Counted from the first letter of the stretch, positions 22,518 through 40,430 are shown. The stretch: DNA of 40,446 bases from an uncultured Gammaproteobacteria bacterium (GCA_964444295.1 CAYUGO010000002.1:1-40446); one strand, 5' to 3'. The notes: a model not told the origin generated them from the sequence alone. Made by a program: numbers and translations.

Positions 22518-23417
22518 TTAGTTTGTGATGTTTATTGGTGTGGGGGTTTTTATTATTTTAGATTGTGGGTGAAGTTGATGGTAAGTTATTTTGTACAATA
22601 AATATACAACAAGAGTGGCAGATGTGACGGAAATTATTAAACTGAGAGTGAATGAAATAGGGGTGCTTTGGGGTGGAATCGGGATGTTTAAGAAGTGGCG
22701 TTGATGTGTAATGGCATTAGATAGTTGAGGATTATGAATGGATGTGGGAGTTGTGGAAATGGTGGGAGTGGTATTGAGGGTTGCTGCGAAAGTAGCGGTT
22801 AATGTTTCGGTCGGAATTGAGACAATCGGGGGAGATATTTGGGAAGGTGTATTGGAGGATGTGGTCGAAATATGGATAGACTGAGTAGGGGTGGGTGATG
22901 AGGGTGCTTGGATGTTGAGTTGAAGATTGTGAACTTCGTTAAGAATATCACCTTGGCCTGTGGTGACTGCGATGTTCGAATCGGTAGTTTGGCCAGAGAA
23001 GAAGATGATATCAAGATTGGTCGAGCCTGATTGGAGGGCTTTGAAATTTAGAGTTGCAAGAGTGTTTGTCCCGTTGAATTGTGAGTCCAGAGAGTTAGCG
23101 AAGGTTGAGATGTGAATAGTTCCGAGATCATTATCAAAATTTTTTTTAATAAAATTATCAAAAATTGTACCTTCTTCGATTGAAGTGATTTGAATAAACT
23201 GGGGATTAAATTTTATTTTGACACCTGCCCCTGCGGTTTCGTTTCCAGCGGTATCGAGGATGATATTTATTTGGGATGATTGTTCTACAATTGGATTTGG
23301 GGTGGAGGTAGTGAGACTGAATGAAGGACTTGCGGCAAGTGTTGGGAATGGATTAGTTAATGAATTAAGTAAGAGGGTGACAAGGATGATAATTGAGGAA
23401 GTTAGATGGAGTCGCAC
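22518..23417 (-). CDS. membrane-anchored cohesin-domain protein (candidate anchoring scaffoldin A)
   Basis: 299 aa with a GTG start. A signal peptide is followed by a cohesin-like module (INIILDTAGNETAGAGVKIKFNPQFIQITSIEEG...GTIHIS...LATLNFKALQSGSTNLDIIF...TDSNIAV). Then come a Ser/Thr/Pro linker, a C-terminal TM helix ISFTLSLIISVTSATLVVYLLY and a short tail. Confidence 0.7.
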   Translation of the reverse strand: MRLHLTSSIIILVTLLLNSLTNPFPTLAASPSFSLTTSTPNPIVEQSSQINIILDTAGNETAGAGVKIKFNPQFIQITSIEEGTIFDNFIKKNFDNDLGTIHISTFANSLDSQFNGTNTLATLNFKALQSGSTNLDIIFFSGQTTDSNIAVTTGQGDILNEVHNLQLNIQAPSSPTPTQSIHISTTSSNTPSQISPPIVSIPTETLTATFAATLNTTPTISTTPTSIHNPQLSNAITHQRHFLNIPIPPQSTPISFTLSLIISVTSATLVVYLLYKITYHQLHPQSKIIKTPTPINITN

Positions 23418-23448
23418 AGATATTGTTTATTATATAGATCAGTTTAAC

Positions 23449-24234
23449 TTAGTAAGTTGGAGGCACAGTGTTGTTCGTGTAAGGGGGAGAATCAGTAGGT
23501 GGAAGTGGGTTAGTTGGTGATTGATTATCAGTTTTGATGATGATTGTAGGTTCTTGAGGGGAAGTATTTTTGTTTTTGAGGAGTAAAAATAAAACAATAA
23601 TGGTGATGATAATGGCAGCAATTATAGATCCGATGATATAGATGAGATTATTGTTAGCTGAGTTGGTCATTGGAGGAGAAAGGGTTGTATCATCCGTGAC
23701 AGTTGTGTTAGCAATATTTGGATTAGGAGAGATAGAAACTGTGAGAGAGTTAGTGTATGCGAGGATATCTCCGTTGCCATATGTAACTGCGATATTGGAA
23801 TCTCTGGTGTTATTGGGAAGGTAGTTAAATTTGACGGTGGTTTGACCAACTGATTTAGATCGGAAAGTAATAGTTGCGAAACGGTCTATGCCTTGATATA
23901 GAGATTGAGAAGTAGGATCTTTGATACCAGAAATGGAGATAGTGCCTTTGGCATTATCGTATGTGGCATTTGGGTATGAGTCAAAAATAGGATATGTGTC
24001 TATTTTGGTAACTTCAAGATTGTTTTGGCTATAAAAAAGTTCTGCACCGACTCCAGCAACCTCTTGATTAGAGGTATCAATTCTGAGATCAACTGTGAAT
24101 GTTTCGTTGACAGTTGAATTAGTCTGGGTTGGTTCAAGTAAAAGGCTGGGGAGGTTGTTTTGGGCAAGAAGATTAGTACTGTGAAGGAATATAATACCTA
24201 GAGATAAAAAAAGAGAAAGTGCAATTTTATTCAT
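23449..24234 (-). CDS. membrane-anchored cohesin-domain protein (candidate anchoring scaffoldin B)
   Basis: 261 aa. A signal peptide is followed by a cohesin-like module (FTVDLRIDTSNQEVAGVGAELFYSQNNLEVTKID...GTISISG...FATITFRSKSVGQTTVKFNY...RDSNIAV). Then come the TM helix LIYIIGSIIAAIIITIIVLFLLL and a Pro-rich tail. Confidence 0.7.
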   Translation of the reverse strand: MNKIALSLFLSLGIIFLHSTNLLAQNNLPSLLLEPTQTNSTVNETFTVDLRIDTSNQEVAGVGAELFYSQNNLEVTKIDTYPIFDSYPNATYDNAKGTISISGIKDPTSQSLYQGIDRFATITFRSKSVGQTTVKFNYLPNNTRDSNIAVTYGNGDILAYTNSLTVSISPNPNIANTTVTDDTTLSPPMTNSANNNLIYIIGSIIAAIIITIIVLFLLLKNKNTSPQEPTIIIKTDNQSPTNPLPPTDSPPYTNNTVPPTY

Positions 24235-24255
24235 GATGACTGATTGAGAGAATAT

Positions 24256-25899
24256 TTATTGGAGAACGTCATCTTGTTTGTTCCAGTTGTCGCGCATGAT
24301 GGCGAAGTCTAGAGCATTGAGTTCTCCGCTGCGATCGAGATCGGCGAGACTATAGTTCTTAAAGAAGTTGGGAAGTACGTGGAGAGTGTAGTCAATTTCG
24401 TTAATCTCACCATCTTGATTGAAGTCGCCTCCGAGAAGCGGTGATTGAGTTAGATTGATAAGTTGTTCTTGGGCTGTGATATTAATGGGGTTGGTGTTTG
24501 TGCCGAATTTTTTGGCTAGGTAGCCTGGAGCTTTGACGGTGAATATATAATTACCTGAGGCTACATTGATTGATACTTGACCGTTAGTATTGGTTTGGGA
24601 TTGAACTTCGGAGGTTTGATTGTTGGACAGTTTTTTGATTTCGATGGTCACAGGTAGATTTTTGGCGATACCGGAGGTGATGCCTTTCCCTTGGAAATTA
24701 ACTTGGAGAGTTGCACTTAATGTGGGAACTGGAGTTGGTCCAGTGGTGGGTACGGCGGTGGGGATTGCTGTAGGAGCTGGTGTATTAGTCGGGGTAGGGG
24801 TTGGAACATTGCTAGGAACTGGAGTGGGGGTGTTGGTAGGAGCCAAGGTTGCTGTTGGAGCAGCAATTATAGTGATAGCTTGGTTATTAACTTGGGATAA
24901 AATATCAACAGGATTGTTACCGGCGTTGAATTTGACAAGGTTGCTGTCATTGGGGTTGTTAGGAGAAAATTGATAGTTGATTGGGGTTGAAGCAATGGTT
25001 TTGAGCGGTTGGAAGGTAATTCTGGCGAAGATCAAATTGTTGCCGATCGCTGGAGTTGGATTGGCAGAGGTGCCGATATTCGCTGCGATGTTAATTGTTC
25101 CAGCTGTGTTGTCGTAAGCTTTGACGGCATATGAGCTAAATGCTGATGGAGTTGATTGTTCTACGCTGATGACTTTGAGATATTGAGGATTGAAGGTTAT
25201 GTCGGCATCAACGGCACTTAATTGTTCACCTGCGGAATTGACAGTAGTTTCAACTGTGAAGTTTTGGTTGACTGTTTGGGGATTTGGTTTACTTAGATTA
25301 GTAAAGGCGAGAGTAGGAGTGTCTGTATTAACTACGATTTGACCATTAGTGGCTGACGCAAGAGTATTTTCGGCTTGGAGATTAGCTACAAGAGATGGTC
25401 TGTTTGAGGTAGTATCAATTACAAGGTCAGAGGTCCCCGCGGTTATTACTTGGTATGTAATATTTGCGACTGCACCAGGGACCACCCCACCATAGTTACT
25501 TCCAAGAGGGAATCCGATTGCATAACGGATGTCGCCGTTGCCGAAAGTTTTTTGAATTACGACAGGTGCACCCCCTGCTTGATTTTGGAAATCAGTGAAA
25601 AAATTACCTGGTTGGATGTCATTAATTTGGATTACTGAAGCATTATAAGTAAGATGAAGTTCAATTGAATTGACTTGATCGCCATTTGGATTAATGTTAA
25701 CGGCGAATGAAGCTGATTCTGCGAGGCGGGGGGTACTTTGGGCTGGCTGAATAGCAAGCACCGATTTACCTGTGGCAGCTTGAGTGTTAGTTCTGGTTGG
25801 AATACGAGAAAGGTAGATACTGACAGGAAGAGCCAGAAGAGCGACTGCTAGAATTATGTACTTTGATTTATTTTTGGTTAATGAGTTTGGGAAGTTCAT
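24256..25899 (-). CDS. secreted adaptor scaffoldin-like protein: two cohesin-like modules, PT linker, Ig-like (CarboxypepD_reg-like) module, C-terminal canonical dockerin
   Basis: 547 aa. Cohesin 1 spans ~aa 45-190 and cohesin 2 ~aa 195-345 (FTVETTVNSAGEQLSAVDADITFNPQYLKVISVE...GTINIAAN...FARITFQPL). The linker is APTNTPTPVPSNVPTPTPTNTPAPT. The dockerin is GDFNQDGEINEIDYTL...ADLDRSGELNALDFAIM (nt 24259-24432). Confidence 0.75.
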   Translation of the reverse strand: MNFPNSLTKNKSKYIILAVALLALPVSIYLSRIPTRTNTQAATGKSVLAIQPAQSTPRLAESASFAVNINPNGDQVNSIELHLTYNASVIQINDIQPGNFFTDFQNQAGGAPVVIQKTFGNGDIRYAIGFPLGSNYGGVVPGAVANITYQVITAGTSDLVIDTTSNRPSLVANLQAENTLASATNGQIVVNTDTPTLAFTNLSKPNPQTVNQNFTVETTVNSAGEQLSAVDADITFNPQYLKVISVEQSTPSAFSSYAVKAYDNTAGTINIAANIGTSANPTPAIGNNLIFARITFQPLKTIASTPINYQFSPNNPNDSNLVKFNAGNNPVDILSQVNNQAITIIAAPTATLAPTNTPTPVPSNVPTPTPTNTPAPTAIPTAVPTTGPTPVPTLSATLQVNFQGKGITSGIAKNLPVTIEIKKLSNNQTSEVQSQTNTNGQVSINVASGNYIFTVKAPGYLAKKFGTNTNPINITAQEQLINLTQSPLLGGDFNQDGEINEIDYTLHVLPNFFKNYSLADLDRSGELNALDFAIMRDNWNKQDDVLQ

Positions 25900-25939
25900 C
25901 TTTGTTTATTGTGGGTTTATTAGTTGGGGATTGCAAGGG

Positions 25940-26224
25940 TTATTTACCAAAACTTATAGACAAAATTGTATAGTCTAGGATATTTACTGCGTTATCACCA
26001 TTGAGATCAGCTTTGTGATTATTGGTTCCCATTTGGCTAGAAAGAAATGTGTAGTCGAGAATGTTGACTTTACCGTCACAATTATTGGTGTCTCCAATAA
26101 CAGGGCAAGGGGCAGATTGAATATTAGTAACAGGAAGAGTAGGCGTAGCCGCCGAAACAGTAGGGCTTGTAATGAAGGTTAAAATCAAAAATCCAGTAAT
26201 AATTGTGGCAAGTTTTATTTTCAC
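25940..26224 (-). CDS. secreted dockerin-only miniprotein (94 aa)
   Basis: GTG start. A signal peptide ending VSA-A and a short linker are followed by CPVIGDTNNCDGKVNILDYTFLSSQMGTNNHKADLNGDNAVNILDYTILSISFGK. There is no other domain. Confidence 0.6.
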   Translation of the reverse strand: MKIKLATIITGFLILTFITSPTVSAATPTLPVTNIQSAPCPVIGDTNNCDGKVNILDYTFLSSQMGTNNHKADLNGDNAVNILDYTILSISFGK

Positions 26225-26257
26225 AAGTTAATGTTAATCATATTAATATTGTGGTGT

Positions 26258-28846
26258 CTATAGGGAATTGCCAAAATTAGCCGAGAGGATAGAGTAATCA
26301 AGGACATTAATAACACCATCTTGTTTTAAATCAGCCTTAGTATCATTAGTACCAAATTTAGAAGATAGGTAGGTAAAATCTAGTGCATTAACCACATTGT
26401 CACAGAGGTTAGTATCCCCAATTAATGGACAAGGGCGATTAAGAGGTGTGGAAGTTGGCGTTGGAGAATTGGTGGGTGTTGGAGGAAGAGGAGTCGGGGT
26501 GGCGGATGGAAGATTAGAAGCAATTATTTTTACTGCTAAGTCGTCGCTTAGATTGGAGATGGGCAGAGTAATATTTCCTGTAGAGTTGGTAGTAAGGTTT
26601 TGGGTTTGGGTAATAGTTCCATTATAAGTATTCCACCATTGAACTATATAGTTTGAACTAGGAGTTAGTTTGGTAGTAATGGTTGATGATTGAGGGGTAC
26701 TGGTTTTGTTCCAGGTGTGGTCTGCATTTTGGATCCAAATATATGCTTTAGTGCCATCGGATTTTTTTTGTCCGTAAGTTCGGATTTTGGTGTTCGTAGA
26801 GGTCGTTTGGGCGTCATTGAATCCTCCGCGATTGAGATCTAAGTCATTTATGTAATTATAGAAAGGTTTGGTAATACTAGCTTTGCCGTTGGTGATTTTT
26901 TGGATGTGTTCGGTATCAAACCAGTAACCTGTGGCGAAGGCGGCTCCTCGGGTGAGCTGTGACCAGAGCATGTTGTGATACCATGTGCCTGAATTGGCGG
27001 AAGTTATTTTGGGATCGTTGAGCGGGTTCCACCATTCAGCAGTTGAGCTTAATCCATTTTCTGCCCAGATTAAAGGTTTGTTAGCATTTTTGGCGTAAGC
27101 GACTTCACCGACTTGTTTGACCCACTCGGCCATATCATAGGTATATGAGGAAGATGTGGTGTTGGGATTGCCGGAGTATTCATGGAGATCTAAGTAATCG
27201 ATGTCAGGATATTTGTTTTGAGAATTACTATAAAATGGAAAGCCGTCGTAGAGGGAGCAACACCAAAATGAAGTTGTTGAAAGAACGGGATGGGCGCTAA
27301 GATTTTTGGTATAATGGGCAAGATTTTCTTGAACATTTTGCCAGTGTGATATGTCGTTAGGGTTTGCCTCGTTGACCGCTTCCCATGAATGAACTGCGGT
27401 TGAGTATCCCCAGCGAGCAATAAGATAACGATACCACTGTCTTTTGAGCCAGCTGGATTTGGTATTGTAAGGTTGGTCGTAACCAGTACCTTGGAGCCAG
27501 CTGGCCCAGGTGCCGTTTTCGTTAAGACTACGGAAGATGGGATCGTTTTTGTCATGAACATTATATTTAAGATAAATTCCATTAGCTTCTGCTTGTTGGA
27601 CTTGCCAATCGAAAAAAGCAGCTGGCCGTTGTTCGACGTAGGTGTGCATATCGGCAGTCGGATTCCTGATAATTTCTGCGCCATTTTCTTTGATTGATAG
27701 TTCGTAGATATCGGCCTTGCCTCCTGTCACATTGTCAAGATAAACCCAGATGTCGCTGCCTGTTCCGGATGGAGTTGTAAATGAGGCTTGGAATGTTTGC
27801 CATCCGTTGGTACCTTGAGTTTGAGTAATATGGGAGAAAGGTTTAGGAGAATTTCTTAGGGTATTTTCTACAGTTTCATCAGTGGGATTGCCCCAGATAG
27901 GATTGCCAAATTTGATAACTAATCCATAAGGGTAGGAAGAATTTCGTGGACCTGTGATGTTGGTAGTTTTGGCGGATAACTTGATTTGATAATTAGTATT
28001 GGGTTTTATGGGAGTAAAAAATGATTCATCCATCCAACTGGTTAGCCAGTAGCGACTGGCGTTAGGATATTCTAAGTTGTAAGCAAGCCCATCGCTATTG
28101 GGATAGCGGTCTTGGAGAGAGTTCGTGAACGAGACTCTGGTTGAAATGCCTTCATTCCCGTGTTGCTCAGCTGAGGATTTCCAGCGGGCCCAGTTGGCAG
28201 AATATGCTCCTGAACCTCCCATCCAAGGTCGGACAAAGTTGAGTCCGGTGTCTTTGTATTTGGAAAAATCTTCGTCACTATAGATAGGTCCAATGGGCCA
28301 GAAGAGTTTACCGTTGGAGAATTCAAAATAGCGATTATCAGTCGGACTGACTTTGATAAATCCATCTTTGGTAGGGGTTGTGGCGGTAAAAGATCCGGCG
28401 TTGAAGGTGGTGATGCCTGAGGCGTCGGTGGCACGGATTTGAACATTAAAAGTACCTTGTTCTTGTGGACTGAATCTAATTACCCAGTATTTTTTGTTGG
28501 TTTCGGTAAATTTTAGACTACTGCCAGAACCTGATTTGGTAGTTTCGGTCATGTAGAATCCAGGGTGGGTCCAAGTTTTGCCGTTTGCAGTAAAAATTCC
28601 TTCAACTGTTATTCCAGTTTTGGGAGTAATTCCGGAAGGCGGAGTGGAATCATATTGAAAAAAATAATTACTGGCAGTAGTGGTTAAATCAAATTTGGCT
28701 TCGTATTTTTCGTAGACTTTGACGGAGGAAGTTGTGGAGGAAAAATTTGATATAACTGGCCCATTAGATTGGGCTAGAGTTGGTAGAGGAAAGAGAGCTA
28801 AGAGTAAAAGAATTGAGATAAAGAGGACAATTTTAATTTGGTTCAT
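26258..28846 (-). CDS. secreted clan GH-A (GH5-like) glycoside hydrolase with N-terminal Ig-like (DUF5060-like) module and C-terminal dockerin, copy 1
   Basis: 862 aa. WEAVNEANP is the NE acid/base motif, DLHEY is the H-x-Y motif, and PLIWAENG is the nucleophile Glu ~105 aa later. Then come the PT linker PTPLPPTPTNSPTPTSTP and the dockerin CPLIGDTNLCDNVVNALDFTYLSSKFGTNDTKADLKQDGVINVLDYSILSANFGNSL. The stop codon is TAG. Confidence 0.8.
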   Translation of the reverse strand: MNQIKIVLFISILLLLALFPLPTLAQSNGPVISNFSSTTSSVKVYEKYEAKFDLTTTASNYFFQYDSTPPSGITPKTGITVEGIFTANGKTWTHPGFYMTETTKSGSGSSLKFTETNKKYWVIRFSPQEQGTFNVQIRATDASGITTFNAGSFTATTPTKDGFIKVSPTDNRYFEFSNGKLFWPIGPIYSDEDFSKYKDTGLNFVRPWMGGSGAYSANWARWKSSAEQHGNEGISTRVSFTNSLQDRYPNSDGLAYNLEYPNASRYWLTSWMDESFFTPIKPNTNYQIKLSAKTTNITGPRNSSYPYGLVIKFGNPIWGNPTDETVENTLRNSPKPFSHITQTQGTNGWQTFQASFTTPSGTGSDIWVYLDNVTGGKADIYELSIKENGAEIIRNPTADMHTYVEQRPAAFFDWQVQQAEANGIYLKYNVHDKNDPIFRSLNENGTWASWLQGTGYDQPYNTKSSWLKRQWYRYLIARWGYSTAVHSWEAVNEANPNDISHWQNVQENLAHYTKNLSAHPVLSTTSFWCCSLYDGFPFYSNSQNKYPDIDYLDLHEYSGNPNTTSSSYTYDMAEWVKQVGEVAYAKNANKPLIWAENGLSSTAEWWNPLNDPKITSANSGTWYHNMLWSQLTRGAAFATGYWFDTEHIQKITNGKASITKPFYNYINDLDLNRGGFNDAQTTSTNTKIRTYGQKKSDGTKAYIWIQNADHTWNKTSTPQSSTITTKLTPSSNYIVQWWNTYNGTITQTQNLTTNSTGNITLPISNLSDDLAVKIIASNLPSATPTPLPPTPTNSPTPTSTPLNRPCPLIGDTNLCDNVVNALDFTYLSSKFGTNDTKADLKQDGVINVLDYSILSANFGNSL

Positions 28847-31418
28847 GGATATTAATTAATTACTTTGATTTGAGAGGGATCGCTGATAATAATTTCTGGA
28901 TCCTTGCCTTCAGGCCAGTATGGAGTGACATAACCTGAGATGATAACTTTTTTATTTAGAAAGGTCATGGGGTCATAATTGAATTTGGATAAGTCTTTTT
29001 CAAAAATTCTAATTAATAAGGCTCCGTCGTGTGGATTTGTGAATCCTAGATATATTGCTTTGGGTCGATGATTGACGGCTGACTTGATGGTTCCTTGGAC
29101 TGTGACGTTTTGACCGATATATTTGGGGGCGTCCGTGTAGGAAATGGTTGGGAATTGAGAAGAATCAGCAGTTCCAAGAACTTGAGTATTTGGATTAGTT
29201 TGGGCTAAGGTTTGGTCAGACGTGTCTGAGGCAAGAGGATTGCCGTTGGTTAGAGCCATGATGGCCCCGTCGTTGGTTTTGACTAGAACTAGACCATCAC
29301 TGACGACGGTATAGGGATCAGTTCCAGAGTTATTGTCATTGTGATATTCGTAGAAGCCTGGTGGATAGCTGCGTTGGTCTCCGTAAGAATAAAGACCTGC
29401 TTGGCAGTAACGAGTATTTGCGTTGAATGGGCAGTTGGATGGACCATAAGATGTGCCTGTACCGCCTGGGAAAATTTGGGGATTACATTGGGAATTGGTG
29501 GGTGGACAGTAAACTTGTCTCCAGATGACAAATGGAGCGTCAGAAGTTTTGATGGGATTGGTAAATGATGCACCTAAGTTGGACGCGCGGTCGGTAATTT
29601 TTTTGGCTGAGTTAATGAGCCAATGACTATGGAAGATGGTGTCGCCTGACATAGCGATGTTCATCATTTCGTCGGTTTGAATGTCTGTGTAGCTGATAAA
29701 CCTCATGTCACCTGTTGAATAGCCCGAGACTGTATTGTTATCGAGAACCATTTCGCCCATGGTGGCATCTTCACGTCCATCGCACCAGCCCGTGCCACAA
29801 GCAAGTCCGTTGCGCCAGATTATGTAGGCTACTTCTTTGTCGTTAATAGTTTTGATGATCGGTTGAGGACCCATTGGTAAGGTACCTCCGTCACCAGCAC
29901 CGCCGTTGCCTACAGCAGGAACAAATGCTTGATTTCCTGTATCAAGGTTAAGTGGGAATAGTGCTTGAGCGCTTGGGGTTGATGCTAGAGCTGATTTGAT
30001 TTGGCTATTAGTTGTGGGATATGGATTCCATGTCCAGAGAGAATCCCAGTCAAGCCGATAACGGATAAATACTAAACCGTGTTGTTCAGCGATGACTGGC
30101 CATCCTTCTTCGGCTTGAGCTCCAGTTGAATTAAGTGTCCCTGACTGGTAATTACGGAGGGTTGGTTTTACTCGCCATTTGCGGGAGCCATCGGTGTTAT
30201 TAATTGCATGAACATATAAATCTTGGGTTAGATAAATAAGGGCATTGCGAGATGGAGAGTATGAAACAGGAGTTGAACTTGGTGAATTACCTTGGTATTC
30301 CCAGACTTTGGTCATGAGATTTTTATCGACTTTGGTAAGGGTTCCAGATTGAGAAACGATGTAAATAGAGTTATCAACTAGCAAGGGTGTTAGATTGAGA
30401 CTGGATGGAGCGGTGTAGGTTCTGGAGATTGAACCATTGGATGCATTAAGTTTGTATAGATTGTTGTTATTTGAAGCAATATAAACGAATTCGTTATTGT
30501 AGATTGGGGTTGAGGTTAGATTTCCGAGTGAGTTGTTGGACCATAATACTTGGCCGTTGGCTTTGTTTAGAGCAAAGATAGTATTGTTGGCAACAGTATA
30601 GACTCGAGATCCGCCTGTAATTGGTTGGACTAGGGGAGGGGCGCTAAGATGATTAGCTTGTTTTTTCCCGTCAGATCCGGCGCCATTCCATTGCCAAAGA
30701 TATTTCCAGGGGGTGGCTACTGTCTGGGGTGTATAACTTGTTCGTTGGGCGTTGTGTGCGAATTGAGTCCATTCGGTTGAACTAGTGGGACCTTGAGTTG
30801 GAGTAGGAGCGGGAGGAGTAGGTGAGTTAGTGGGAGCTGGGGTAGAAGTTGAGGGAGGTGAGGTTGGTCCGACTTTGCCAAAATTATTTGACAGAATAGT
30901 AAAGTCAAAAACATTGACATTATTATCTGAATTAAAATCTGCGCCTATATTATTGGAGCCGAAATTGGAAGAAAGATATGTAAAATCTAAGACATTAACT
31001 GTGTTGTTGCATGGTGGAGTGTCTCCTGGGAATGAACATCTAGTGCTGGTTTGGGCTTGGATTGTGAATTTGGATGTAGATAGGCGAGGAAAATCAAAAA
31101 TTAAATTGATTGAAATTAGTAGTAAAGATAATAGGATTAAGAGTTTCGTGTGATTCACTGATTTTATTATATATATTAGTTGACATTAATTACAAAGTTT
31201 TACCAAAGTTAGCAGAGAGGATGGAGTAATCCAGGACATTAATAACACCATCTTGTTTTAAATCAGCCTTGGGATCATTAGTACCGAATTTGGAAGAGAG
31301 ATAAGTAAAGTCTAGTGCATTAACTACATTATCACAGAGGTTAGTATCTCCGATTAGAGGACAAGGACGAGACAGAGGAGTGGAAGTTGGGGTTGGTTGA
31401 TTAGTGGGTGTTGGGGGA
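26487..31418. repeat. tandem direct repeat, unit 1 (4932 bp)
   Basis: The offset is exactly 4932 nt to unit 2. Spot checks at 26501/31433, 26521/31453, 28861/33793 and 31141/36073 are identical. All six-frame sub-ORFs in the track are also duplicated with identical translations. Confidence 0.9.
28852..31158 (-). CDS. secreted PQQ-like beta-propeller protein with N-terminal dockerin and C-terminal OB-like module, copy 1
   Basis: 768 aa with a GTG start. The dockerin is CSFPGDTPPCNNTVNVLDFTYLSSNFGSNNIGADFNSDNNVNVFDFTILSNNFGK (nt ~30877-31038), followed by a PT linker. Propeller blades repeat: VYTVANNTIFALNKANGQVLWS, VYIASNNNNLYKLNASNGS, IYIVSQSGTLTKVDKNLMTKVWE, LIYLTQDLYVHAINNTDGSRKWR. Confidence 0.78.
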   Translation of the reverse strand: MNHTKLLILLSLLLISINLIFDFPRLSTSKFTIQAQTSTRCSFPGDTPPCNNTVNVLDFTYLSSNFGSNNIGADFNSDNNVNVFDFTILSNNFGKVGPTSPPSTSTPAPTNSPTPPAPTPTQGPTSSTEWTQFAHNAQRTSYTPQTVATPWKYLWQWNGAGSDGKKQANHLSAPPLVQPITGGSRVYTVANNTIFALNKANGQVLWSNNSLGNLTSTPIYNNEFVYIASNNNNLYKLNASNGSISRTYTAPSSLNLTPLLVDNSIYIVSQSGTLTKVDKNLMTKVWEYQGNSPSSTPVSYSPSRNALIYLTQDLYVHAINNTDGSRKWRVKPTLRNYQSGTLNSTGAQAEEGWPVIAEQHGLVFIRYRLDWDSLWTWNPYPTTNSQIKSALASTPSAQALFPLNLDTGNQAFVPAVGNGGAGDGGTLPMGPQPIIKTINDKEVAYIIWRNGLACGTGWCDGREDATMGEMVLDNNTVSGYSTGDMRFISYTDIQTDEMMNIAMSGDTIFHSHWLINSAKKITDRASNLGASFTNPIKTSDAPFVIWRQVYCPPTNSQCNPQIFPGGTGTSYGPSNCPFNANTRYCQAGLYSYGDQRSYPPGFYEYHNDNNSGTDPYTVVSDGLVLVKTNDGAIMALTNGNPLASDTSDQTLAQTNPNTQVLGTADSSQFPTISYTDAPKYIGQNVTVQGTIKSAVNHRPKAIYLGFTNPHDGALLIRIFEKDLSKFNYDPMTFLNKKVIISGYVTPYWPEGKDPEIIISDPSQIKVIN

Positions 31419-33778
31419 AGAGGAGTCGGGGTGGCGGATGGAAGATTAGAAGCAATTATTTTTACTGCTAAGTCGTCGCTTAGATTGGAGATGGGCAGAG
31501 TAATATTTCCTGTAGAGTTGGTAGTAAGGTTTTGGGTTTGGGTAATAGTTCCATTATAAGTATTCCACCATTGAACTATATAGTTTGAACTAGGAGTTAG
31601 TTTGGTAGTAATGGTTGATGATTGAGGGGTACTGGTTTTGTTCCAGGTGTGGTCTGCATTTTGGATCCAAATATATGCTTTAGTGCCATCGGATTTTTTT
31701 TGTCCGTAAGTTCGGATTTTGGTGTTCGTAGAGGTCGTTTGGGCGTCATTGAATCCTCCGCGATTGAGATCTAAGTCATTTATGTAATTATAGAAAGGTT
31801 TGGTAATACTAGCTTTGCCGTTGGTGATTTTTTGGATGTGTTCGGTATCAAACCAGTAACCTGTGGCGAAGGCGGCTCCTCGGGTGAGCTGTGACCAGAG
31901 CATGTTGTGATACCATGTGCCTGAATTGGCGGAAGTTATTTTGGGATCGTTGAGCGGGTTCCACCATTCAGCAGTTGAGCTTAATCCATTTTCTGCCCAG
32001 ATTAAAGGTTTGTTAGCATTTTTGGCGTAAGCGACTTCACCGACTTGTTTGACCCACTCGGCCATATCATAGGTATATGAGGAAGATGTGGTGTTGGGAT
32101 TGCCGGAGTATTCATGGAGATCTAAGTAATCGATGTCAGGATATTTGTTTTGAGAATTACTATAAAATGGAAAGCCGTCGTAGAGGGAGCAACACCAAAA
32201 TGAAGTTGTTGAAAGAACGGGATGGGCGCTAAGATTTTTGGTATAATGGGCAAGATTTTCTTGAACATTTTGCCAGTGTGATATGTCGTTAGGGTTTGCC
32301 TCGTTGACCGCTTCCCATGAATGAACTGCGGTTGAGTATCCCCAGCGAGCAATAAGATAACGATACCACTGTCTTTTGAGCCAGCTGGATTTGGTATTGT
32401 AAGGTTGGTCGTAACCAGTACCTTGGAGCCAGCTGGCCCAGGTGCCGTTTTCGTTAAGACTACGGAAGATGGGATCGTTTTTGTCATGAACATTATATTT
32501 AAGATAAATTCCATTAGCTTCTGCTTGTTGGACTTGCCAATCGAAAAAAGCAGCTGGCCGTTGTTCGACGTAGGTGTGCATATCGGCAGTCGGATTCCTG
32601 ATAATTTCTGCGCCATTTTCTTTGATTGATAGTTCGTAGATATCGGCCTTGCCTCCTGTCACATTGTCAAGATAAACCCAGATGTCGCTGCCTGTTCCGG
32701 ATGGAGTTGTAAATGAGGCTTGGAATGTTTGCCATCCGTTGGTACCTTGAGTTTGAGTAATATGGGAGAAAGGTTTAGGAGAATTTCTTAGGGTATTTTC
32801 TACAGTTTCATCAGTGGGATTGCCCCAGATAGGATTGCCAAATTTGATAACTAATCCATAAGGGTAGGAAGAATTTCGTGGACCTGTGATGTTGGTAGTT
32901 TTGGCGGATAACTTGATTTGATAATTAGTATTGGGTTTTATGGGAGTAAAAAATGATTCATCCATCCAACTGGTTAGCCAGTAGCGACTGGCGTTAGGAT
33001 ATTCTAAGTTGTAAGCAAGCCCATCGCTATTGGGATAGCGGTCTTGGAGAGAGTTCGTGAACGAGACTCTGGTTGAAATGCCTTCATTCCCGTGTTGCTC
33101 AGCTGAGGATTTCCAGCGGGCCCAGTTGGCAGAATATGCTCCTGAACCTCCCATCCAAGGTCGGACAAAGTTGAGTCCGGTGTCTTTGTATTTGGAAAAA
33201 TCTTCGTCACTATAGATAGGTCCAATGGGCCAGAAGAGTTTACCGTTGGAGAATTCAAAATAGCGATTATCAGTCGGACTGACTTTGATAAATCCATCTT
33301 TGGTAGGGGTTGTGGCGGTAAAAGATCCGGCGTTGAAGGTGGTGATGCCTGAGGCGTCGGTGGCACGGATTTGAACATTAAAAGTACCTTGTTCTTGTGG
33401 ACTGAATCTAATTACCCAGTATTTTTTGTTGGTTTCGGTAAATTTTAGACTACTGCCAGAACCTGATTTGGTAGTTTCGGTCATGTAGAATCCAGGGTGG
33501 GTCCAAGTTTTGCCGTTTGCAGTAAAAATTCCTTCAACTGTTATTCCAGTTTTGGGAGTAATTCCGGAAGGCGGAGTGGAATCATATTGAAAAAAATAAT
33601 TACTGGCAGTAGTGGTTAAATCAAATTTGGCTTCGTATTTTTCGTAGACTTTGACGGAGGAAGTTGTGGAGGAAAAATTTGATATAACTGGCCCATTAGA
33701 TTGGGCTAGAGTTGGTAGAGGAAAGAGAGCTAAGAGTAAAAGAATTGAGATAAAGAGGACAATTTTAATTTGGTTCAT
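31190..33778 (-). CDS. clan GH-A glycoside hydrolase with C-terminal dockerin, copy 2 (chimeric 3' end)
   Basis: The protein is identical to copy 1 except for the last ~70 aa. There the linker/dockerin (TNQPTP, LSRPCP, NDPKADL, GKTL) matches the SGNH gene's dockerin instead. Confidence 0.8.
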   Translation of the reverse strand: MNQIKIVLFISILLLLALFPLPTLAQSNGPVISNFSSTTSSVKVYEKYEAKFDLTTTASNYFFQYDSTPPSGITPKTGITVEGIFTANGKTWTHPGFYMTETTKSGSGSSLKFTETNKKYWVIRFSPQEQGTFNVQIRATDASGITTFNAGSFTATTPTKDGFIKVSPTDNRYFEFSNGKLFWPIGPIYSDEDFSKYKDTGLNFVRPWMGGSGAYSANWARWKSSAEQHGNEGISTRVSFTNSLQDRYPNSDGLAYNLEYPNASRYWLTSWMDESFFTPIKPNTNYQIKLSAKTTNITGPRNSSYPYGLVIKFGNPIWGNPTDETVENTLRNSPKPFSHITQTQGTNGWQTFQASFTTPSGTGSDIWVYLDNVTGGKADIYELSIKENGAEIIRNPTADMHTYVEQRPAAFFDWQVQQAEANGIYLKYNVHDKNDPIFRSLNENGTWASWLQGTGYDQPYNTKSSWLKRQWYRYLIARWGYSTAVHSWEAVNEANPNDISHWQNVQENLAHYTKNLSAHPVLSTTSFWCCSLYDGFPFYSNSQNKYPDIDYLDLHEYSGNPNTTSSSYTYDMAEWVKQVGEVAYAKNANKPLIWAENGLSSTAEWWNPLNDPKITSANSGTWYHNMLWSQLTRGAAFATGYWFDTEHIQKITNGKASITKPFYNYINDLDLNRGGFNDAQTTSTNTKIRTYGQKKSDGTKAYIWIQNADHTWNKTSTPQSSTITTKLTPSSNYIVQWWNTYNGTITQTQNLTTNSTGNITLPISNLSDDLAVKIIASNLPSATPTPLPPTPTNQPTPTSTPLSRPCPLIGDTNLCDNVVNALDFTYLSSKFGTNDPKADLKQDGVINVLDYSILSANFGKTL

Positions 33779-36350
33779 GGATATTAATTAATTACTTTGA
33801 TTTGAGAGGGATCGCTGATAATAATTTCTGGATCCTTGCCTTCAGGCCAGTATGGAGTGACATAACCTGAGATGATAACTTTTTTATTTAGAAAGGTCAT
33901 GGGGTCATAATTGAATTTGGATAAGTCTTTTTCAAAAATTCTAATTAATAAGGCTCCGTCGTGTGGATTTGTGAATCCTAGATATATTGCTTTGGGTCGA
34001 TGATTGACGGCTGACTTGATGGTTCCTTGGACTGTGACGTTTTGACCGATATATTTGGGGGCGTCCGTGTAGGAAATGGTTGGGAATTGAGAAGAATCAG
34101 CAGTTCCAAGAACTTGAGTATTTGGATTAGTTTGGGCTAAGGTTTGGTCAGACGTGTCTGAGGCAAGAGGATTGCCGTTGGTTAGAGCCATGATGGCCCC
34201 GTCGTTGGTTTTGACTAGAACTAGACCATCACTGACGACGGTATAGGGATCAGTTCCAGAGTTATTGTCATTGTGATATTCGTAGAAGCCTGGTGGATAG
34301 CTGCGTTGGTCTCCGTAAGAATAAAGACCTGCTTGGCAGTAACGAGTATTTGCGTTGAATGGGCAGTTGGATGGACCATAAGATGTGCCTGTACCGCCTG
34401 GGAAAATTTGGGGATTACATTGGGAATTGGTGGGTGGACAGTAAACTTGTCTCCAGATGACAAATGGAGCGTCAGAAGTTTTGATGGGATTGGTAAATGA
34501 TGCACCTAAGTTGGACGCGCGGTCGGTAATTTTTTTGGCTGAGTTAATGAGCCAATGACTATGGAAGATGGTGTCGCCTGACATAGCGATGTTCATCATT
34601 TCGTCGGTTTGAATGTCTGTGTAGCTGATAAACCTCATGTCACCTGTTGAATAGCCCGAGACTGTATTGTTATCGAGAACCATTTCGCCCATGGTGGCAT
34701 CTTCACGTCCATCGCACCAGCCCGTGCCACAAGCAAGTCCGTTGCGCCAGATTATGTAGGCTACTTCTTTGTCGTTAATAGTTTTGATGATCGGTTGAGG
34801 ACCCATTGGTAAGGTACCTCCGTCACCAGCACCGCCGTTGCCTACAGCAGGAACAAATGCTTGATTTCCTGTATCAAGGTTAAGTGGGAATAGTGCTTGA
34901 GCGCTTGGGGTTGATGCTAGAGCTGATTTGATTTGGCTATTAGTTGTGGGATATGGATTCCATGTCCAGAGAGAATCCCAGTCAAGCCGATAACGGATAA
35001 ATACTAAACCGTGTTGTTCAGCGATGACTGGCCATCCTTCTTCGGCTTGAGCTCCAGTTGAATTAAGTGTCCCTGACTGGTAATTACGGAGGGTTGGTTT
35101 TACTCGCCATTTGCGGGAGCCATCGGTGTTATTAATTGCATGAACATATAAATCTTGGGTTAGATAAATAAGGGCATTGCGAGATGGAGAGTATGAAACA
35201 GGAGTTGAACTTGGTGAATTACCTTGGTATTCCCAGACTTTGGTCATGAGATTTTTATCGACTTTGGTAAGGGTTCCAGATTGAGAAACGATGTAAATAG
35301 AGTTATCAACTAGCAAGGGTGTTAGATTGAGACTGGATGGAGCGGTGTAGGTTCTGGAGATTGAACCATTGGATGCATTAAGTTTGTATAGATTGTTGTT
35401 ATTTGAAGCAATATAAACGAATTCGTTATTGTAGATTGGGGTTGAGGTTAGATTTCCGAGTGAGTTGTTGGACCATAATACTTGGCCGTTGGCTTTGTTT
35501 AGAGCAAAGATAGTATTGTTGGCAACAGTATAGACTCGAGATCCGCCTGTAATTGGTTGGACTAGGGGAGGGGCGCTAAGATGATTAGCTTGTTTTTTCC
35601 CGTCAGATCCGGCGCCATTCCATTGCCAAAGATATTTCCAGGGGGTGGCTACTGTCTGGGGTGTATAACTTGTTCGTTGGGCGTTGTGTGCGAATTGAGT
35701 CCATTCGGTTGAACTAGTGGGACCTTGAGTTGGAGTAGGAGCGGGAGGAGTAGGTGAGTTAGTGGGAGCTGGGGTAGAAGTTGAGGGAGGTGAGGTTGGT
35801 CCGACTTTGCCAAAATTATTTGACAGAATAGTAAAGTCAAAAACATTGACATTATTATCTGAATTAAAATCTGCGCCTATATTATTGGAGCCGAAATTGG
35901 AAGAAAGATATGTAAAATCTAAGACATTAACTGTGTTGTTGCATGGTGGAGTGTCTCCTGGGAATGAACATCTAGTGCTGGTTTGGGCTTGGATTGTGAA
36001 TTTGGATGTAGATAGGCGAGGAAAATCAAAAATTAAATTGATTGAAATTAGTAGTAAAGATAATAGGATTAAGAGTTTCGTGTGATTCACTGATTTTATT
36101 ATATATATTAGTTGACATTAATTACAAAGTTTTACCAAAGTTAGCAGAGAGGATGGAGTAATCCAGGACATTAATAACACCATCTTGTTTTAAATCAGCC
36201 TTGGGATCATTAGTACCGAATTTGGAAGAGAGATAAGTAAAGTCTAGTGCATTAACTACATTATCACAGAGGTTAGTATCTCCGATTAGAGGACAAGGAC
36301 GAGACAGAGGAGTGGAAGTTGGGGTTGGTGAATTAGTGGGTGTTGGGGGA
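31419..36350. repeat. tandem direct repeat, unit 2 (4932 bp)
   Basis: As for unit 1. The only difference I found between the copies' flanking homologies is a dinucleotide at 31398-31399 (tg) versus 36330-36331 (ga). Confidence 0.9.
33784..36090 (-). CDS. PQQ-like beta-propeller protein with N-terminal dockerin, copy 2
   Basis: The 768-aa translation is identical to 28852-31158. Confidence 0.78.
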   Translation of the reverse strand: MNHTKLLILLSLLLISINLIFDFPRLSTSKFTIQAQTSTRCSFPGDTPPCNNTVNVLDFTYLSSNFGSNNIGADFNSDNNVNVFDFTILSNNFGKVGPTSPPSTSTPAPTNSPTPPAPTPTQGPTSSTEWTQFAHNAQRTSYTPQTVATPWKYLWQWNGAGSDGKKQANHLSAPPLVQPITGGSRVYTVANNTIFALNKANGQVLWSNNSLGNLTSTPIYNNEFVYIASNNNNLYKLNASNGSISRTYTAPSSLNLTPLLVDNSIYIVSQSGTLTKVDKNLMTKVWEYQGNSPSSTPVSYSPSRNALIYLTQDLYVHAINNTDGSRKWRVKPTLRNYQSGTLNSTGAQAEEGWPVIAEQHGLVFIRYRLDWDSLWTWNPYPTTNSQIKSALASTPSAQALFPLNLDTGNQAFVPAVGNGGAGDGGTLPMGPQPIIKTINDKEVAYIIWRNGLACGTGWCDGREDATMGEMVLDNNTVSGYSTGDMRFISYTDIQTDEMMNIAMSGDTIFHSHWLINSAKKITDRASNLGASFTNPIKTSDAPFVIWRQVYCPPTNSQCNPQIFPGGTGTSYGPSNCPFNANTRYCQAGLYSYGDQRSYPPGFYEYHNDNNSGTDPYTVVSDGLVLVKTNDGAIMALTNGNPLASDTSDQTLAQTNPNTQVLGTADSSQFPTISYTDAPKYIGQNVTVQGTIKSAVNHRPKAIYLGFTNPHDGALLIRIFEKDLSKFNYDPMTFLNKKVIISGYVTPYWPEGKDPEIIISDPSQIKVIN

Positions 36351-37312
36351 AGAGGAGTCGGGGTGGGAACAGTTGTGGGAGTTATACCTGCATTAGTGAG
36401 CATCTCGTATTGAGTAAAGGGAGTAATGTTTAGATTAAAATTGGTGTTAAATGGTTGAGTGAACCAAAGGTTGGCCATAAGCCCGTTGGCTACTGTTCCT
36501 AAGTGACCTGCGGTGTCTCCCAGACGAAAATGGTGTGGCTCATTGTTTTGGGCAAATACGTGTATTTTTTCTCCAGCAATGAGAATATCTCCTGAGCTAT
36601 CTAGTTTGGAAACTACATTAGCTGTCATCACTGTGTTTAGGTCAACGAAAACAATTCCATTTGCATCAGCTTTGGCTTCCCATGCGGTATTGATTGTGTT
36701 TATGGCATTTGTGACACGAGCGCGTTTGGTGGGATCAGGGTAGAGCATCGCAATGGGTGGAAAAATTCCTGGATCGCCAATGCTGGTCATGACGATTTGG
36801 GTGTTGCCAGCTTGTTTGATAATATCGATGGCTTGGTTCATCTTACTAATTATTTCGTTGACTTTGGTGTTGATGTTTACTGTATTGTTATAAACGCTGT
36901 CATAAGTTTGATTCCAAAAATTAAAGTCATTGACTCCTATATGAATAAATACGTATTTAACTTCTCCTGATCGGATTTGGCTTGCGAGTCCGGTTGCTTG
37001 ACCTGAATCAATGAGATCTCTAGTTAAATTGCCACTTTTGGACCAGTTGTATTTGTATCCAGTTCTTCGGTTATCGCTCCAAGTTCCCCATGGTCCGAAA
37101 TTGAGGTTTCTTTTCTTTACCAGCAGCTCCGCCCAATTGAAAGTAGTAGCTGCATATGTGCCACCTCTATTATCGTTTGCTCTGTATTCATCGGAGTTAC
37201 TATCGCTTAAGATGCCGATCCCTTCGTTGTTGTATGTGGCAAACGTTATAGATGGAAAAATAATTAAATTAAGGAGAGATAAAAATAATAATGTAGCAAG
37301 ATATTTTTTCAT
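36122..37312 (-). CDS. secreted SGNH/GDSL-type esterase with C-terminal dockerin
   Basis: I chose the start at MKKYLATLLFLSLLNLIIFPSITFA (signal peptide). The track ORF extends to GTG 37357. Block I is GILSDSNSDEY, block III is IHIGVNDF, and there is a distal DTAGH. Then come a PT linker and a dockerin whose DNA matches that of 31190-31436 at all but two adjacent positions (31398-31399). Confidence 0.72.
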   Translation of the reverse strand: MKKYLATLLFLSLLNLIIFPSITFATYNNEGIGILSDSNSDEYRANDNRGGTYAATTFNWAELLVKKRNLNFGPWGTWSDNRRTGYKYNWSKSGNLTRDLIDSGQATGLASQIRSGEVKYVFIHIGVNDFNFWNQTYDSVYNNTVNINTKVNEIISKMNQAIDIIKQAGNTQIVMTSIGDPGIFPPIAMLYPDPTKRARVTNAINTINTAWEAKADANGIVFVDLNTVMTANVVSKLDSSGDILIAGEKIHVFAQNNEPHHFRLGDTAGHLGTVANGLMANLWFTQPFNTNFNLNITPFTQYEMLTNAGITPTTVPTPTPLPPTPTNSPTPTSTPLSRPCPLIGDTNLCDNVVNALDFTYLSSKFGTNDPKADLKQDGVINVLDYSILSANFGKTL

Positions 37313-37379
37313 TTTTAAGCCTGTAATTACCTTAACATAGTTGGGGATGATTGGCACGTTTTTGGGTTGGAGTAATGGG

Positions 37380-39904: not shown

Positions 39905-40430
39905 ATTTTTGGCGTTTATTAGTAAATGTAACATCTGGGGTTAGATGAAGACTAGGGTTTAGCGTAGAATTAATTGTAAACTGGATTCTTATGAGAGGAA
40001 GGTATGATGATTGGTCATTGTTTATTGTGTCATTGGGAATATTGAATAATTGTGTGCTATTAATCTGGACATCGTTGGGGTGTATAGGTGTTCCATCTTT
40101 GGTGAGGGTAGAGCCAGAAAGAATATATTGATGAGCTGTAGTATTGAGAGTATTAGATCCTGGAACTGAAATTCCATCAGGAGTACTCCAGCGAATTGAG
40201 TCACGAATATCTTGGATGACCAGAGTACTTGTTTGTTGAAGTTGGTTTAGTTGTTGAAGTTGGGCTCGGGTACGGAAGATTGAAACTAGCATTTGAGCTG
40301 TCATTGTTAGAATAATCATGCCTATGCTTGAGGCAATTAGTAACTCGATAAGAGTTAATCCTTGTTTTGGTTGTTGAATATTATGGATTTGGATGTGTTT
40401 CATAGTCAGTAAATATTGTTTTGACTTCAT
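39894..40430 (-). CDS. type IV pilin / pseudopilin-like protein (prepilin-type N-terminal cleavage/methylation motif)
   Basis: KQG-LTLIELLIASSIGMIILT is the canonical G/(F,L)TLIE motif with Glu5. An alternative start is ATG 40403. Confidence 0.75.
   Translation of the reverse strand: MKSKQYLLTMKHIQIHNIQQPKQGLTLIELLIASSIGMIILTMTAQMLVSIFRTRAQLQQLNQLQQTSTLVIQDIRDSIRWSTPDGISVPGSNTLNTTAHQYILSGSTLTKDGTPIHPNDVQINSTQLFNIPNDTINNDQSSYLPLIRIQFTINSTLNPSLHLTPDVTFTNKRQKYGP

Follow-up and report, generated by a model that had tools for sequence, protein, structure and literature searches.

The window analysed here, by which we mean the whole 40,446-nt stretch of contig CAYUGO010000002.1 (GCA_964444295.1), contains a cohesin-dockerin system encoded by a single co-directional cluster on the minus strand (22518-37357), which comprises the genes for two membrane anchors, an adaptor with two cohesins and its own dockerin, a 94-amino acid (aa) dockerin-only protein, and dockerin-bearing cargo proteins. 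One more cargo protein, of 637 aa and with its dockerin at the N-terminus, is encoded outside the cluster (Table 1). Signal peptides are visible in the sequences of all cargo proteins, the adaptor and the anchors, the segment of the adaptor being possibly uncleaved. The ruvB, ruvA and ruvC genes flank the cluster, and the named relatives of RuvB (about 62% identity) all belong to the candidate phyla radiation (CPR), i.e. Kuenenbacteria, Gottesmanbacteria and ACD_58. On the basis of these relatives and of the strand disparity in G and C described below, the host is assigned to a Microgenomates-type Patescibacteria (CPR) bacterium. A previous sequence-only reading of this DNA had proposed that the dockerins fall into two classes, one on the cargo, with a Cys-bracketed first Ca2+ loop enlarged by one residue, and one on the adaptor, free of Cys, and that the two classes confer two binding specificities analogous to type I and type II.

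A six-frame scan with a regular expression, together with the translations of the open reading frames, located the Cys-bracketed first loop in all seven cargo proteins, all encoded on the minus strand, and the pattern C-x4-G-D-T-x-x-C-[DN] was common to the seven dockerins. In five of them (those of the 637-aa and 94-aa proteins, both 862-aa putative hydrolases and the 411-aa SGNH protein) the loop reads D-T-N-x-C-D-x-x-V-N-x-x-D, with the partner Cys placed 9 residues before the loop Cys, and both copies of the 768-aa propeller show identical Cys spacing with degenerate ligands (CSFPGDTPPCNNTVNVLD). The seven copies amount to only four independent dockerins, because the hydrolase and propeller pairs are duplicated and hydrolase copy 2 shares its dockerin sequence, without any difference, with the SGNH protein. 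When dockerins of solved structure were aligned with the cargo sequences by HMMER, a one-residue gap appeared opposite the cargo loop (GDtntCdgvVn versus GDV-NDDGKVN); this loop counts 13 residues from D to D instead of the canonical 12, and its Cys aligns with canonical position 4. The scan and the alignments thus bear out the Cys-bracketed 13-residue loop of the sequence-only reading, and the dockerins do occupy either terminus, as it had stated, being N-terminal in the propellers and the 637-aa protein and C-terminal in the hydrolases and the SGNH protein. Of the consensus that it had given, the second-repeat pattern failed, when taken literally, in the 94-aa protein (S-I-S-F-G) and in the 637-aa protein (T-V-F-S). 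Similarly, the second repeats, described as canonical, have indeed a 12-residue spacing, but this does not entail canonical ligands, because the hydrolase, SGNH and 637-aa dockerins carry Lys as the third residue of loop 2 (D-L-K-Q-D-G, D-V-K-P-D-G). In loop 1, the ligands D1, N3, D6, N10 and D13 are kept in most copies, and a ligand is lost only in the propeller copies, where position 3 is Pro. With respect to the definition of a dockerin as two 12-residue loops with Asp/Asn at positions 1, 3, 5, 9 and 12, the cargo class deviates whereas the adaptor class conforms in both loops.

An AlphaFold2 (AF2) model of the cargo dockerin, built from the 18-sequence alignment A4 described below, reached a predicted local distance difference test (pLDDT) value of 93.6 and contains two helices, at residues 18-26 and 45-54. 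A Foldseek comparison of this model with the PDB gave 21 matches, none of them with E ≤ 0.001, and the top 20 were dockerins; the best fold match was 2y3n_B, with a template-modelling (TM) score of 0.82, a root mean square deviation (rmsd) of 1.4 Å and 42% identity. It is safe to predict from the model, therefore, that the cargo module has the dockerin fold, a duplicated F-hand, and its two repeats are symmetric, with 7-11 of 14 positions identical between them. A reading of the upstream Cys as part of a lipobox was ruled out, since the same Cys is present in the C-terminal dockerins too; in the N-terminal dockerins it lies about 10 residues past an AQA/AQS-type cleavage site, and there is no L-x-x-C box. 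Strand composition bias was also ruled out as the source of the difference between the two classes, since both are encoded on the same strand.

The conservation of the Cys pair was analysed by an exhaustive HMMER search of 1.84 billion representative proteins, which yielded 6214 hits, of which the best 150 proteins were examined. In 25 of these 150 proteins a Cys stands directly before the D/N of the loop. Among the 240 scorable domains of these best hits, 24 of the 25 with a loop Cys also had a Cys no more than 14 residues upstream, as against 44 of the 215 that lacked the loop Cys (Fisher p 5e-14, a statistic uncorrected for phylogeny or relatedness). Alignment A4, which comprises 18 family members with 46-68% identity over 57 columns, has only seven invariant columns, and both Cys residues are among them, which excludes chance as the cause of the invariance of the pair. 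The distance from D1 to the loop Cys in A4 is 2, 3, 5 or 6 residues, giving loops of 12, 13, 15 or 16 residues, and the members with a 12-residue loop read GD[IT][ND]CDG, so that their Cys occupies canonical position 4. An invariant Cys pair around a loop of variable length indicates that what is conserved is the pair, the extra residue being a lineage variant; the insertion, which the sequence-only reading had taken as a defining trait, has therefore to be abandoned as such. Absence of the Cys pair from orthologues had been named beforehand as a possible refutation, and the pair was found invariant in orthologues as well as in distant relatives. The closest genome in the GTDB set, a sister metagenome-assembled genome (MAG) represented by loci L001 and L002, keeps the full layout and both dockerin classes: it retains the dockerin-only protein, the Cys-free adaptor dockerin and both anchors, and the Cys-bracketed loop is present on its propeller, its hydrolase and two further cargo proteins. 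An N-terminal Cys-bracketed dockerin is likewise retained by P0032, a homologue of the 637-aa protein.

Other arrangements of Cys were observed among the relatives. Four cargo-class variants (P0077, P0084, P0108 and P0116) have four Cys residues (RPCQL.GDSSC.GSC[DN]NVVN...ATCVDMNAD) and a 16-residue first loop, with one Cys upstream, two in the loop and the fourth two residues before loop 2, implying, as far as their sequences go, two disulfides; the P0116 dockerin is borne by a homologue of the 862-aa protein of the window. A different topology is found on large proteins of other lineages (L024, L031, L041, L043, L046, L052, L056 and L058), where GD[AVS]NCDG[IV]VN.. is followed by ...PFCF.NAD before loop 2, and here the Cys at loop position 4 would pair with the linker Cys and not with an upstream one. 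In some Phycisphaerales dockerins (L003, L009 and L010) position 4 is Cys in each of the two loops. The 44 loci gathered by the metagenome scan are biased to Cys-bearing dockerins, since the scan pattern itself contained the loop Cys, and are not usable for frequencies.

The Cys pair of the cargo dockerins is likely to form a disulfide staple, because the exported proteins have even Cys counts and a VKOR gene adjoins the cluster in a relative. The mature exported proteins of the window contain 2, 4, 8, 2, 8 and 12 Cys residues and those of L002 contain 8, 4, 6 and 6, mostly as close pairs, whereas the cytoplasmic proteins have 0-5, odd and even numbers being mixed; the adaptor and both anchors have none. 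Even Cys counts in exported proteins are reportedly, according to work of Dutton and colleagues from 2008, a signature of organisms that oxidise their exported proteins. The VKOR-family gene, whose product has a CxxC motif, is located in L061 (5621-6091, minus strand), directly after genes for an adaptor (40% identical to that of the window), an anchor and a second adaptor, and a Redoxin/AhpC-TSA gene lies about 6 kb beyond it; neither a VKOR nor a Redoxin/AhpC-TSA gene was found in the 40,446-nt window itself. An intermolecular disulfide between dockerin and cohesin was ruled out, the adaptor and the anchors being devoid of Cys.

According to the mechanism that we propose, the cargo Cys located five residues before the first Ca2+ ligand would bond to the Cys at canonical loop position 4, which in the lineage of the window is displaced by the one inserted residue. 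The resulting ring of about 10 residues would pin onto the first Ca2+ loop the N-terminal tail of the dockerin F-hand, which has no entering helix, and since the Ca2+ ligands are retained, the bond would stabilise the first site. The sequence-only reading had left it open whether the Cys pair staples the first Ca2+ site or partly replaces it. A disulfide is supported indirectly by the upstream Cys found with 24 of the 25 loop Cys residues, by the four-Cys variants, by the even Cys counts and by the VKOR gene. Replacement is disfavoured for most copies, where the ligands are kept; because D1, N3, D6, N10 and D13 are retained in most of them, the disulfide most likely staples the Ca2+ site rather than replacing it. 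The propeller dockerins, with Pro at position 3, and the relatives with long loops would nevertheless leave room for partial replacement.

In the adaptor, Pfam recognised Cohesin over two stretches (42.3 bits) and Dockerin_1 (24.6 bits). Both loops of the adaptor dockerin have 12 residues, there is no Cys in the whole adaptor, and the two repeats are asymmetric, with only 2 of 14 positions identical; the motif scan therefore agrees with the earlier description of a Cys-free dockerin with canonical spacing in both repeats. The architecture of two cohesins, linker, beta-sandwich and Cys-free dockerin is preserved in adaptor homologues whose overall identity is 27-41%, and none of them departs from the dockerin motif LLGGDFNxDG...DLDxSG..N..DF.I.R.NW, even where identity in the C-terminal region falls to 35%. 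The two dockerin classes are hence real, since each recurs as a conserved class in the sister genome and in distant relatives. An AF2 model of the C-terminal 154 aa of the adaptor (pLDDT 82) is all-beta over aa 1-99 of the construct and then shows two helices. Its top seven PDB matches by Foldseek were type II X-module-dockerin (XDoc) dyads (4wi0_B, 4u3s_B, 5g5d_B, 3kcp_A, 2b59_B and 4fl4 among the entries) from Acetivibrio cellulolyticus ScaA and Clostridium thermocellum CipA, aligned over 157-166 columns with E values of 2e-7 to 1e-5, TM scores of 0.54-0.59 and rmsd values of 4.4-5.7 Å, the latter meaning that the packing between the modules is only roughly alike. Identity to the XDoc structures is 16-26%, a level that does not show sequence homology of the X-like module and dockerin to the clostridial type II modules, and the X-like module scored 23.4 bits with Pfam CarboxypepD_reg, below its cut-off of 32.3. 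Judging from the model, the adaptor C-terminus is a module that would work like an XDoc, descent from the XDoc family being unsupported by sequence. The analogy to type I and type II drawn in the sequence-only reading is thus sustained by the XDoc dyads at the top of the PDB matches and by the contrast in repeat symmetry between the adaptor (2 of 14) and the cargo (7-11 of 14).

Regarding the cohesins, CohA2 of the adaptor and the two anchor cohesins share about 32% identity among themselves, and CohA1 shares about 20% with each of them. The 299-aa anchor passed the Pfam Cohesin cut-off (32.3 versus 24.1 bits) and has an orthologue in the sister MAG (L001). The 261-aa anchor gave no Pfam hit, and its cohesin-like module was assigned only from the 32% identity that it shares with CohA2 and with the cohesin of the 299-aa anchor and from a weak PDB sequence match to a scaffoldin cohesin of C. 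cellulolyticum (E 0.027). Comparison of the four cohesins with PDB sequences gave only non-significant or irrelevant matches and no assignment to type I or II. A gene for a transmembrane-anchored cohesin follows the adaptor gene directly in four independent loci (the window, L001, L061 and L062), and the second adaptor protein of L061 consists only of a CohA1-like cohesin and an X-dockerin, a composition that would fit either a monovalent adaptor or a self-polymerising unit. At the recognition positions 10, 11, 17 and 18 the two dockerin classes differ completely (IL/SS in the cargo, EI/VL and AL/RD in the adaptor). Because of this difference, and because an anchored cohesin gene follows the adaptor gene in four loci, the two dockerin classes likely correspond to two cohesin specificities, and the type I/II analogy would be apt as to the mode of working.

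Taken together, these results suggest, with a probability that we put at roughly 0.55, that the 22518-37357 cluster and the 637-aa gene encode a membrane-anchored display system with stapled cargo dockerins and a type II-like adaptor hierarchy. The secreted cargo, i.e. the DUF5060 putative hydrolase, the PQQ propeller, the SGNH esterase, the 637-aa protein and the 94-aa dockerin-only protein, would carry short stand-alone dockerins with two internally similar repeats, these dockerins would bind the adaptor cohesins, and the X-dockerin of the adaptor would bind a C-terminally membrane-anchored cohesin. The analysis establishes the synteny, the Cys statistics, the predicted folds and the sequence classes with their conservation; the disulfide, the Ca2+ binding and every binding partner in this scheme are what we infer.

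Several observations weigh against this hierarchy and its staple. The cohesins do not split into an adaptor type and an anchor type, and in other CPR loci (Woesebacteria, Levyibacteria, Saccharibacteria and unclassified MAGs) the genes for Cys-bracketed dockerins adjoin genes for membrane-anchored cohesins with no adaptor, so that direct binding of cargo to anchor is plausible in the host of the window too. Moreover, the adaptor (aa 12-30) and many CPR cohesin proteins (in L004, L005, L007 and L021) start with a Lys-rich stretch followed by a long hydrophobic segment, after which a '..AATG' motif is conserved in the adaptor homologues; this segment may be an uncleaved N-terminal membrane anchor instead of a signal peptide, and anchoring through the dockerin would then be redundant. 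These facts agree with a flat or otherwise different wiring in which the cargo binds CohA2 and both anchors directly and the X-dockerin binds either CohA1, forming head-to-tail polymers, or an outside partner, an arrangement that would still involve two specificities. The relative likeness of CohA2 to the anchor cohesins would suit it, as would the L061 second protein, which extends a pattern where CohA1-type cohesins and X-dockerins always occur together. However, an identity of 32% is low enough for specificities to differ, the order of adaptor and then anchor is kept in four loci, and the X-dockerin resembles the type II dyads, whose partners in characterised systems are anchoring scaffoldins; we therefore regard the flat wiring as possible, although on balance unlikely. 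That the two classes differ by descent only and bind the same cohesins promiscuously, as some dockerins of characterised systems do, appears very improbable, given that each class is conserved as such at 27-68% identity, that the classical recognition residues differ completely, and that only the adaptor class has the X-like module.

As to the staple, no solved dockerin carries the Cys pair according to the HMMER comparison, and anoxic water is the habitat of many CPR bacteria, a setting in which disulfides outside the cell may be less stable. The Dockerin_1 scores of the 862-aa (21.0 bits), 411-aa (19.2), 768-aa (18.1) and 637-aa (17.0) proteins, with E values of 4e-4 to 7e-3, lie under the 22.9-bit cut-off of PF00404, which is passed by the 94-aa protein (31.2) and the adaptor (24.6); these low scores would fit with the presence of an inserted residue and a short linker. 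In addition, up to four extra loop residues in relatives argue against an EF-hand geometry being imposed on the N-terminal half of loop 1. This variation of 0 to +4 residues between D1 and the loop Cys, hard to square with an EF-hand, could speak for the Cys pair as a redox switch or partial Ca2+ substitute, which when oxidised would pre-form the loop for binding at low or zero Ca2+ and when reduced would release the cargo; the missing position-3 ligand of the propeller dockerins and the Lys at position 3 of loop 2 in three cargo dockerins would add to a picture of Ca2+ sites that are weakened overall. Nevertheless, most copies keep all the side-chain ligands of loop 1, and such a switch or substitute seems improbable to us. 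We give the least credence to the two Cys residues not being bonded to each other and serving instead as free thiols, as Zn or Fe ligands or in intermolecular disulfides: the adaptor and the anchors offer no Cys, two Cys alone do not suffice for a metal site, the loop Cys is almost never found without a nearby upstream Cys, and the even Cys counts and the VKOR gene of the relative speak for disulfides. The broader proposal that the Cys(-5)-Cys(loop 4) disulfide marks a widespread dockerin subtype, present in Patescibacteria and some other uncultured lineages, in which the staple would partly substitute for the first Ca2+ site, leave the loop free to vary between 12 and 16 residues and make assembly redox-gated or less dependent on Ca2+, is one that we consider doubtful.

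The proposed hierarchy with stapled cargo dockerins can be compared with known systems. In C. thermocellum and A. cellulolyticus, the type I dockerins of the enzymes bind the primary scaffoldin, and an X-module with a type II dockerin binds the anchoring scaffoldin. As in the window, there are two classes, the enzyme dockerins being stand-alone and symmetric and the scaffoldin dockerin asymmetric and fused to a beta-sandwich, and the adaptor has several cohesins and adjacent anchor genes. Type II dockerins bind in a single mode and type I dockerins in a dual mode, the same contrast as that between the adaptor and the cargo in repeat symmetry. In contrast with the clostridial systems, the window comes from a CPR host and has no carbohydrate-binding module (CBM) and no recognisable cellulase, its anchors use a C-terminal transmembrane helix and not SLH domains or sortase, its X-like module resembles (below the Pfam threshold) a carboxypeptidase-regulatory/transthyretin-like domain, unlike the clostridial X, and its cargo dockerins, unlike the clostridial type I, carry the Cys pair and a 13-residue loop. 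Because Pfam scans found no CBM on the adaptor or anchors and no recognisable cellulases among the cargo, the system is best called a non-cellulosomal cohesin-dockerin display system. The Cel48 dockerin of Bacteroides (Pseudobacteroides) cellulosolvens, 2y3n_B, which gave the best fold match, is also the best sequence match (E 3e-10 with the A4 profile), and it shares with the cargo dockerins a short linker between the repeats and helices ending in '...FGK', but it is free of Cys, and each of its loops spans 12 residues.

Group 1 dockerins of Ruminococcus flavefaciens are functional with a second Ca2+ repeat of 13 residues (1a-c) or 11 residues (1d) (Rincon et al. 2010, PMC2930009), a precedent indicating that loop length can vary in functional dockerins; the word 'cysteine' is absent from the text of that paper. 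In R. flavefaciens the odd length occurs in the second repeat and the linkers are very long, whereas in the window it occurs in the first repeat. The environmental dockerins of the 'GDANCDG...PFCFENAD' type have the same Cys at loop position 4, but their partner Cys lies in the linker before loop 2, and the presumed topology differs. The Excalibur domain (DxDxDGxxCE) and the thrombospondin type 3 repeats, EF-hand-like Ca2+ loops of secreted proteins flanked by conserved Cys residues that form, or may form, disulfides, are what we take to be functional analogues of the stapled loop; they have different folds and belong to different families, and Pfam reported neither for the window proteins at E ≤ 0.01. 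The open-access cellulosome literature that was searched, including Rincon et al., the B. cellulosolvens survey and a 2025 review, did not mention any natural disulfide within a bacterial dockerin. The conserved Cys pair round the first Ca2+ loop appears to be what is new here, and it apparently represents an uncharacterised variant of a well-known module. Dockerins of Patescibacteria are, to our knowledge, known only from annotation. For a Saccharibacterium in culture, dockerin proteins are reported to be essential (PMC10633639).

Within the cluster, a perfect tandem duplication of 4914 bp with a period of 4932 (26484-31397 and 31416-36329) comprises the hydrolase body and the propeller gene. 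Its junctions lie inside DNA coding for dockerin and linker, and the 36 differences are all located in 26258-26483, which suggests, from the sequence, unequal crossing-over between the dockerin-coding segments of neighbouring cargo genes; alternatively, the duplication may be an assembly artefact. The 94-aa dockerin-only gene stands directly upstream of the adaptor gene, its L001 orthologue (114-398, 88% identity) has the same position, and small stand-alone dockerin proteins of 73-134 aa recur in relatives (P0003, P0029 and P0033). This protein could be a cap, a competitor or an assembly factor for the cohesins. Beside ruvC (38522-40430) two genes encode a secreted protein of 470 aa, which has a VWA domain and 8 Cys residues, and a protein of 178 aa, which bears a type IV pilin N-methylation motif; the two may be a pilus-tip adhesin pair, i.e. 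a further surface structure adjoining the cluster. The 768-aa propeller scored 61.7 bits with Pfam PQQ_2 and 18.1 bits with Dockerin_1.

The plus strand of the window shows an extreme excess of G over C whatever the orientation of the genes, and the GC skew of 2-kb bins ranges from 0.23 to 0.53. Counted at third codon positions, G outnumbers C by 1443 to 193 in plus-strand genes and C outnumbers G by 1930 to 362 in minus-strand genes, and the encoded proteins are rich in G/V/E/K/R on the plus strand and in T/N/S/P/Q on the minus strand. The sister MAG has the same skew in the opposite orientation (-0.42 and -0.30); the skew was also considered for L062. A genome-wide G/C strand disparity is known in the Microgenomates order UBA1400 (Ca. 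Chazhemtobacterium, Collierbacteria and Beckwithbacteria; PMC7143001), and the disparity observed here hints at a UBA1400-like taxon. The contigs of the sister MAG, CAZLQM010000048.1 (L001) and CAZLQM010000025.1 (L002), were deposited as 'uncultured Gammaproteobacteria bacterium', a label that looks wrong by gene content, by the synteny of ruvA, cohesin and dockerin genes, and by the strand skew.

Table 1. Genes and modules of the cohesin-dockerin system in the window (TM, transmembrane segment)
Feature	Position	Strand	Basis
637-aa cargo, catalytic part without assigned family; N-terminal Cys-bracketed dockerin 14289-14462	12645..14558	-	Motif; Pfam Dockerin_1 17 bits, below threshold
Anchor, 299 aa; signal peptide, cohesin ~aa 30-170, Pro/Thr-rich stalk, C-terminal TM ~aa 256-274, no Cys	22518..23417	-	Pfam Cohesin, hydrophobic segments, Cys count
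Anchor, 261 aa; signal peptide, cohesin-like module ~aa 27-167, C-terminal TM ~aa 192-210, no Cys	23449..24234	-	Similarity in sequence to CohA2 and to the 299-aa anchor cohesin, TM segment
Adaptor scaffoldin, 547 aa; N-terminal hydrophobic segment, CohA1, CohA2, Pro/Thr linker, X-like beta-sandwich, Cys-free dockerin	24256..25899	-	Pfam, homologues
Adaptor-class dockerin, aa 488-547: GDFNQDGEINEID ... ADLDRSGELNALD	24259..24438	-	Motif, spacing, repeat comparison
X-like module, a beta-sandwich, aa 395-487, immediately preceding the adaptor dockerin	24439..24717	-	AF2, Foldseek
CohA2, second adaptor cohesin, aa 193-345	24865..25323	-	Pfam, pairwise identity
CohA1, first adaptor cohesin, aa 44-192, the divergent one	25324..25770	-	Pfam Cohesin 24.6 bits when scanned alone
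94-aa protein, signal peptide plus cargo-class dockerin (25943-26113)	25940..26224	-	Pfam Dockerin_1 31.2 bits, AF2, orthologue
862-aa cargo copy 1, DUF5060, putative glycoside hydrolase; C-terminal Cys-bracketed dockerin 26261-26437	26258..28846	-	
768-aa cargo copy 1, PQQ-like beta-propeller; N-terminal Cys-bracketed dockerin 30871-31044 (CSFPGDTPPCNN; Pro replaces the position-3 ligand)	28852..31158	-	
862-aa cargo copy 2; C-terminal Cys-bracketed dockerin 31193-31369	31190..33778	-	
768-aa PQQ-like propeller copy 2; N-terminal Cys-bracketed dockerin 35803-35976	33784..36090	-	
411-aa SGNH/GDSL hydrolase (esterase); C-terminal Cys-bracketed dockerin 36125-36301	36122..37357	-	Pfam Lipase_GDSL_2 42.9 bits, Dockerin_1 19.2 bits

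Cohesin-dockerin pairs, which are in wide use as a molecular glue in synthetic biology, rank with the most thoroughly studied protein-protein modules, and what is known of them comes nearly all from cellulolytic Firmicutes. The window would provide a complete CPR system, with membrane anchors, a two-cohesin adaptor whose C-terminal dyad is X-dockerin-like, and cargo of five or more kinds. If the staple does stabilise the cargo dockerins or lower their dependence on Ca2+, it would offer a natural design for tougher or redox-switchable dockerins, and, should the broader proposal of a Cys-stapled subtype be true, it would mean a redox-gated or Ca2+-independent cohesin-dockerin interaction in ultra-small episymbiotic bacteria. 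CPR bacteria depend on surface-displayed proteins, and the system described here would, if the proposed scheme is true, give a handle on what their cells attach to the envelope.

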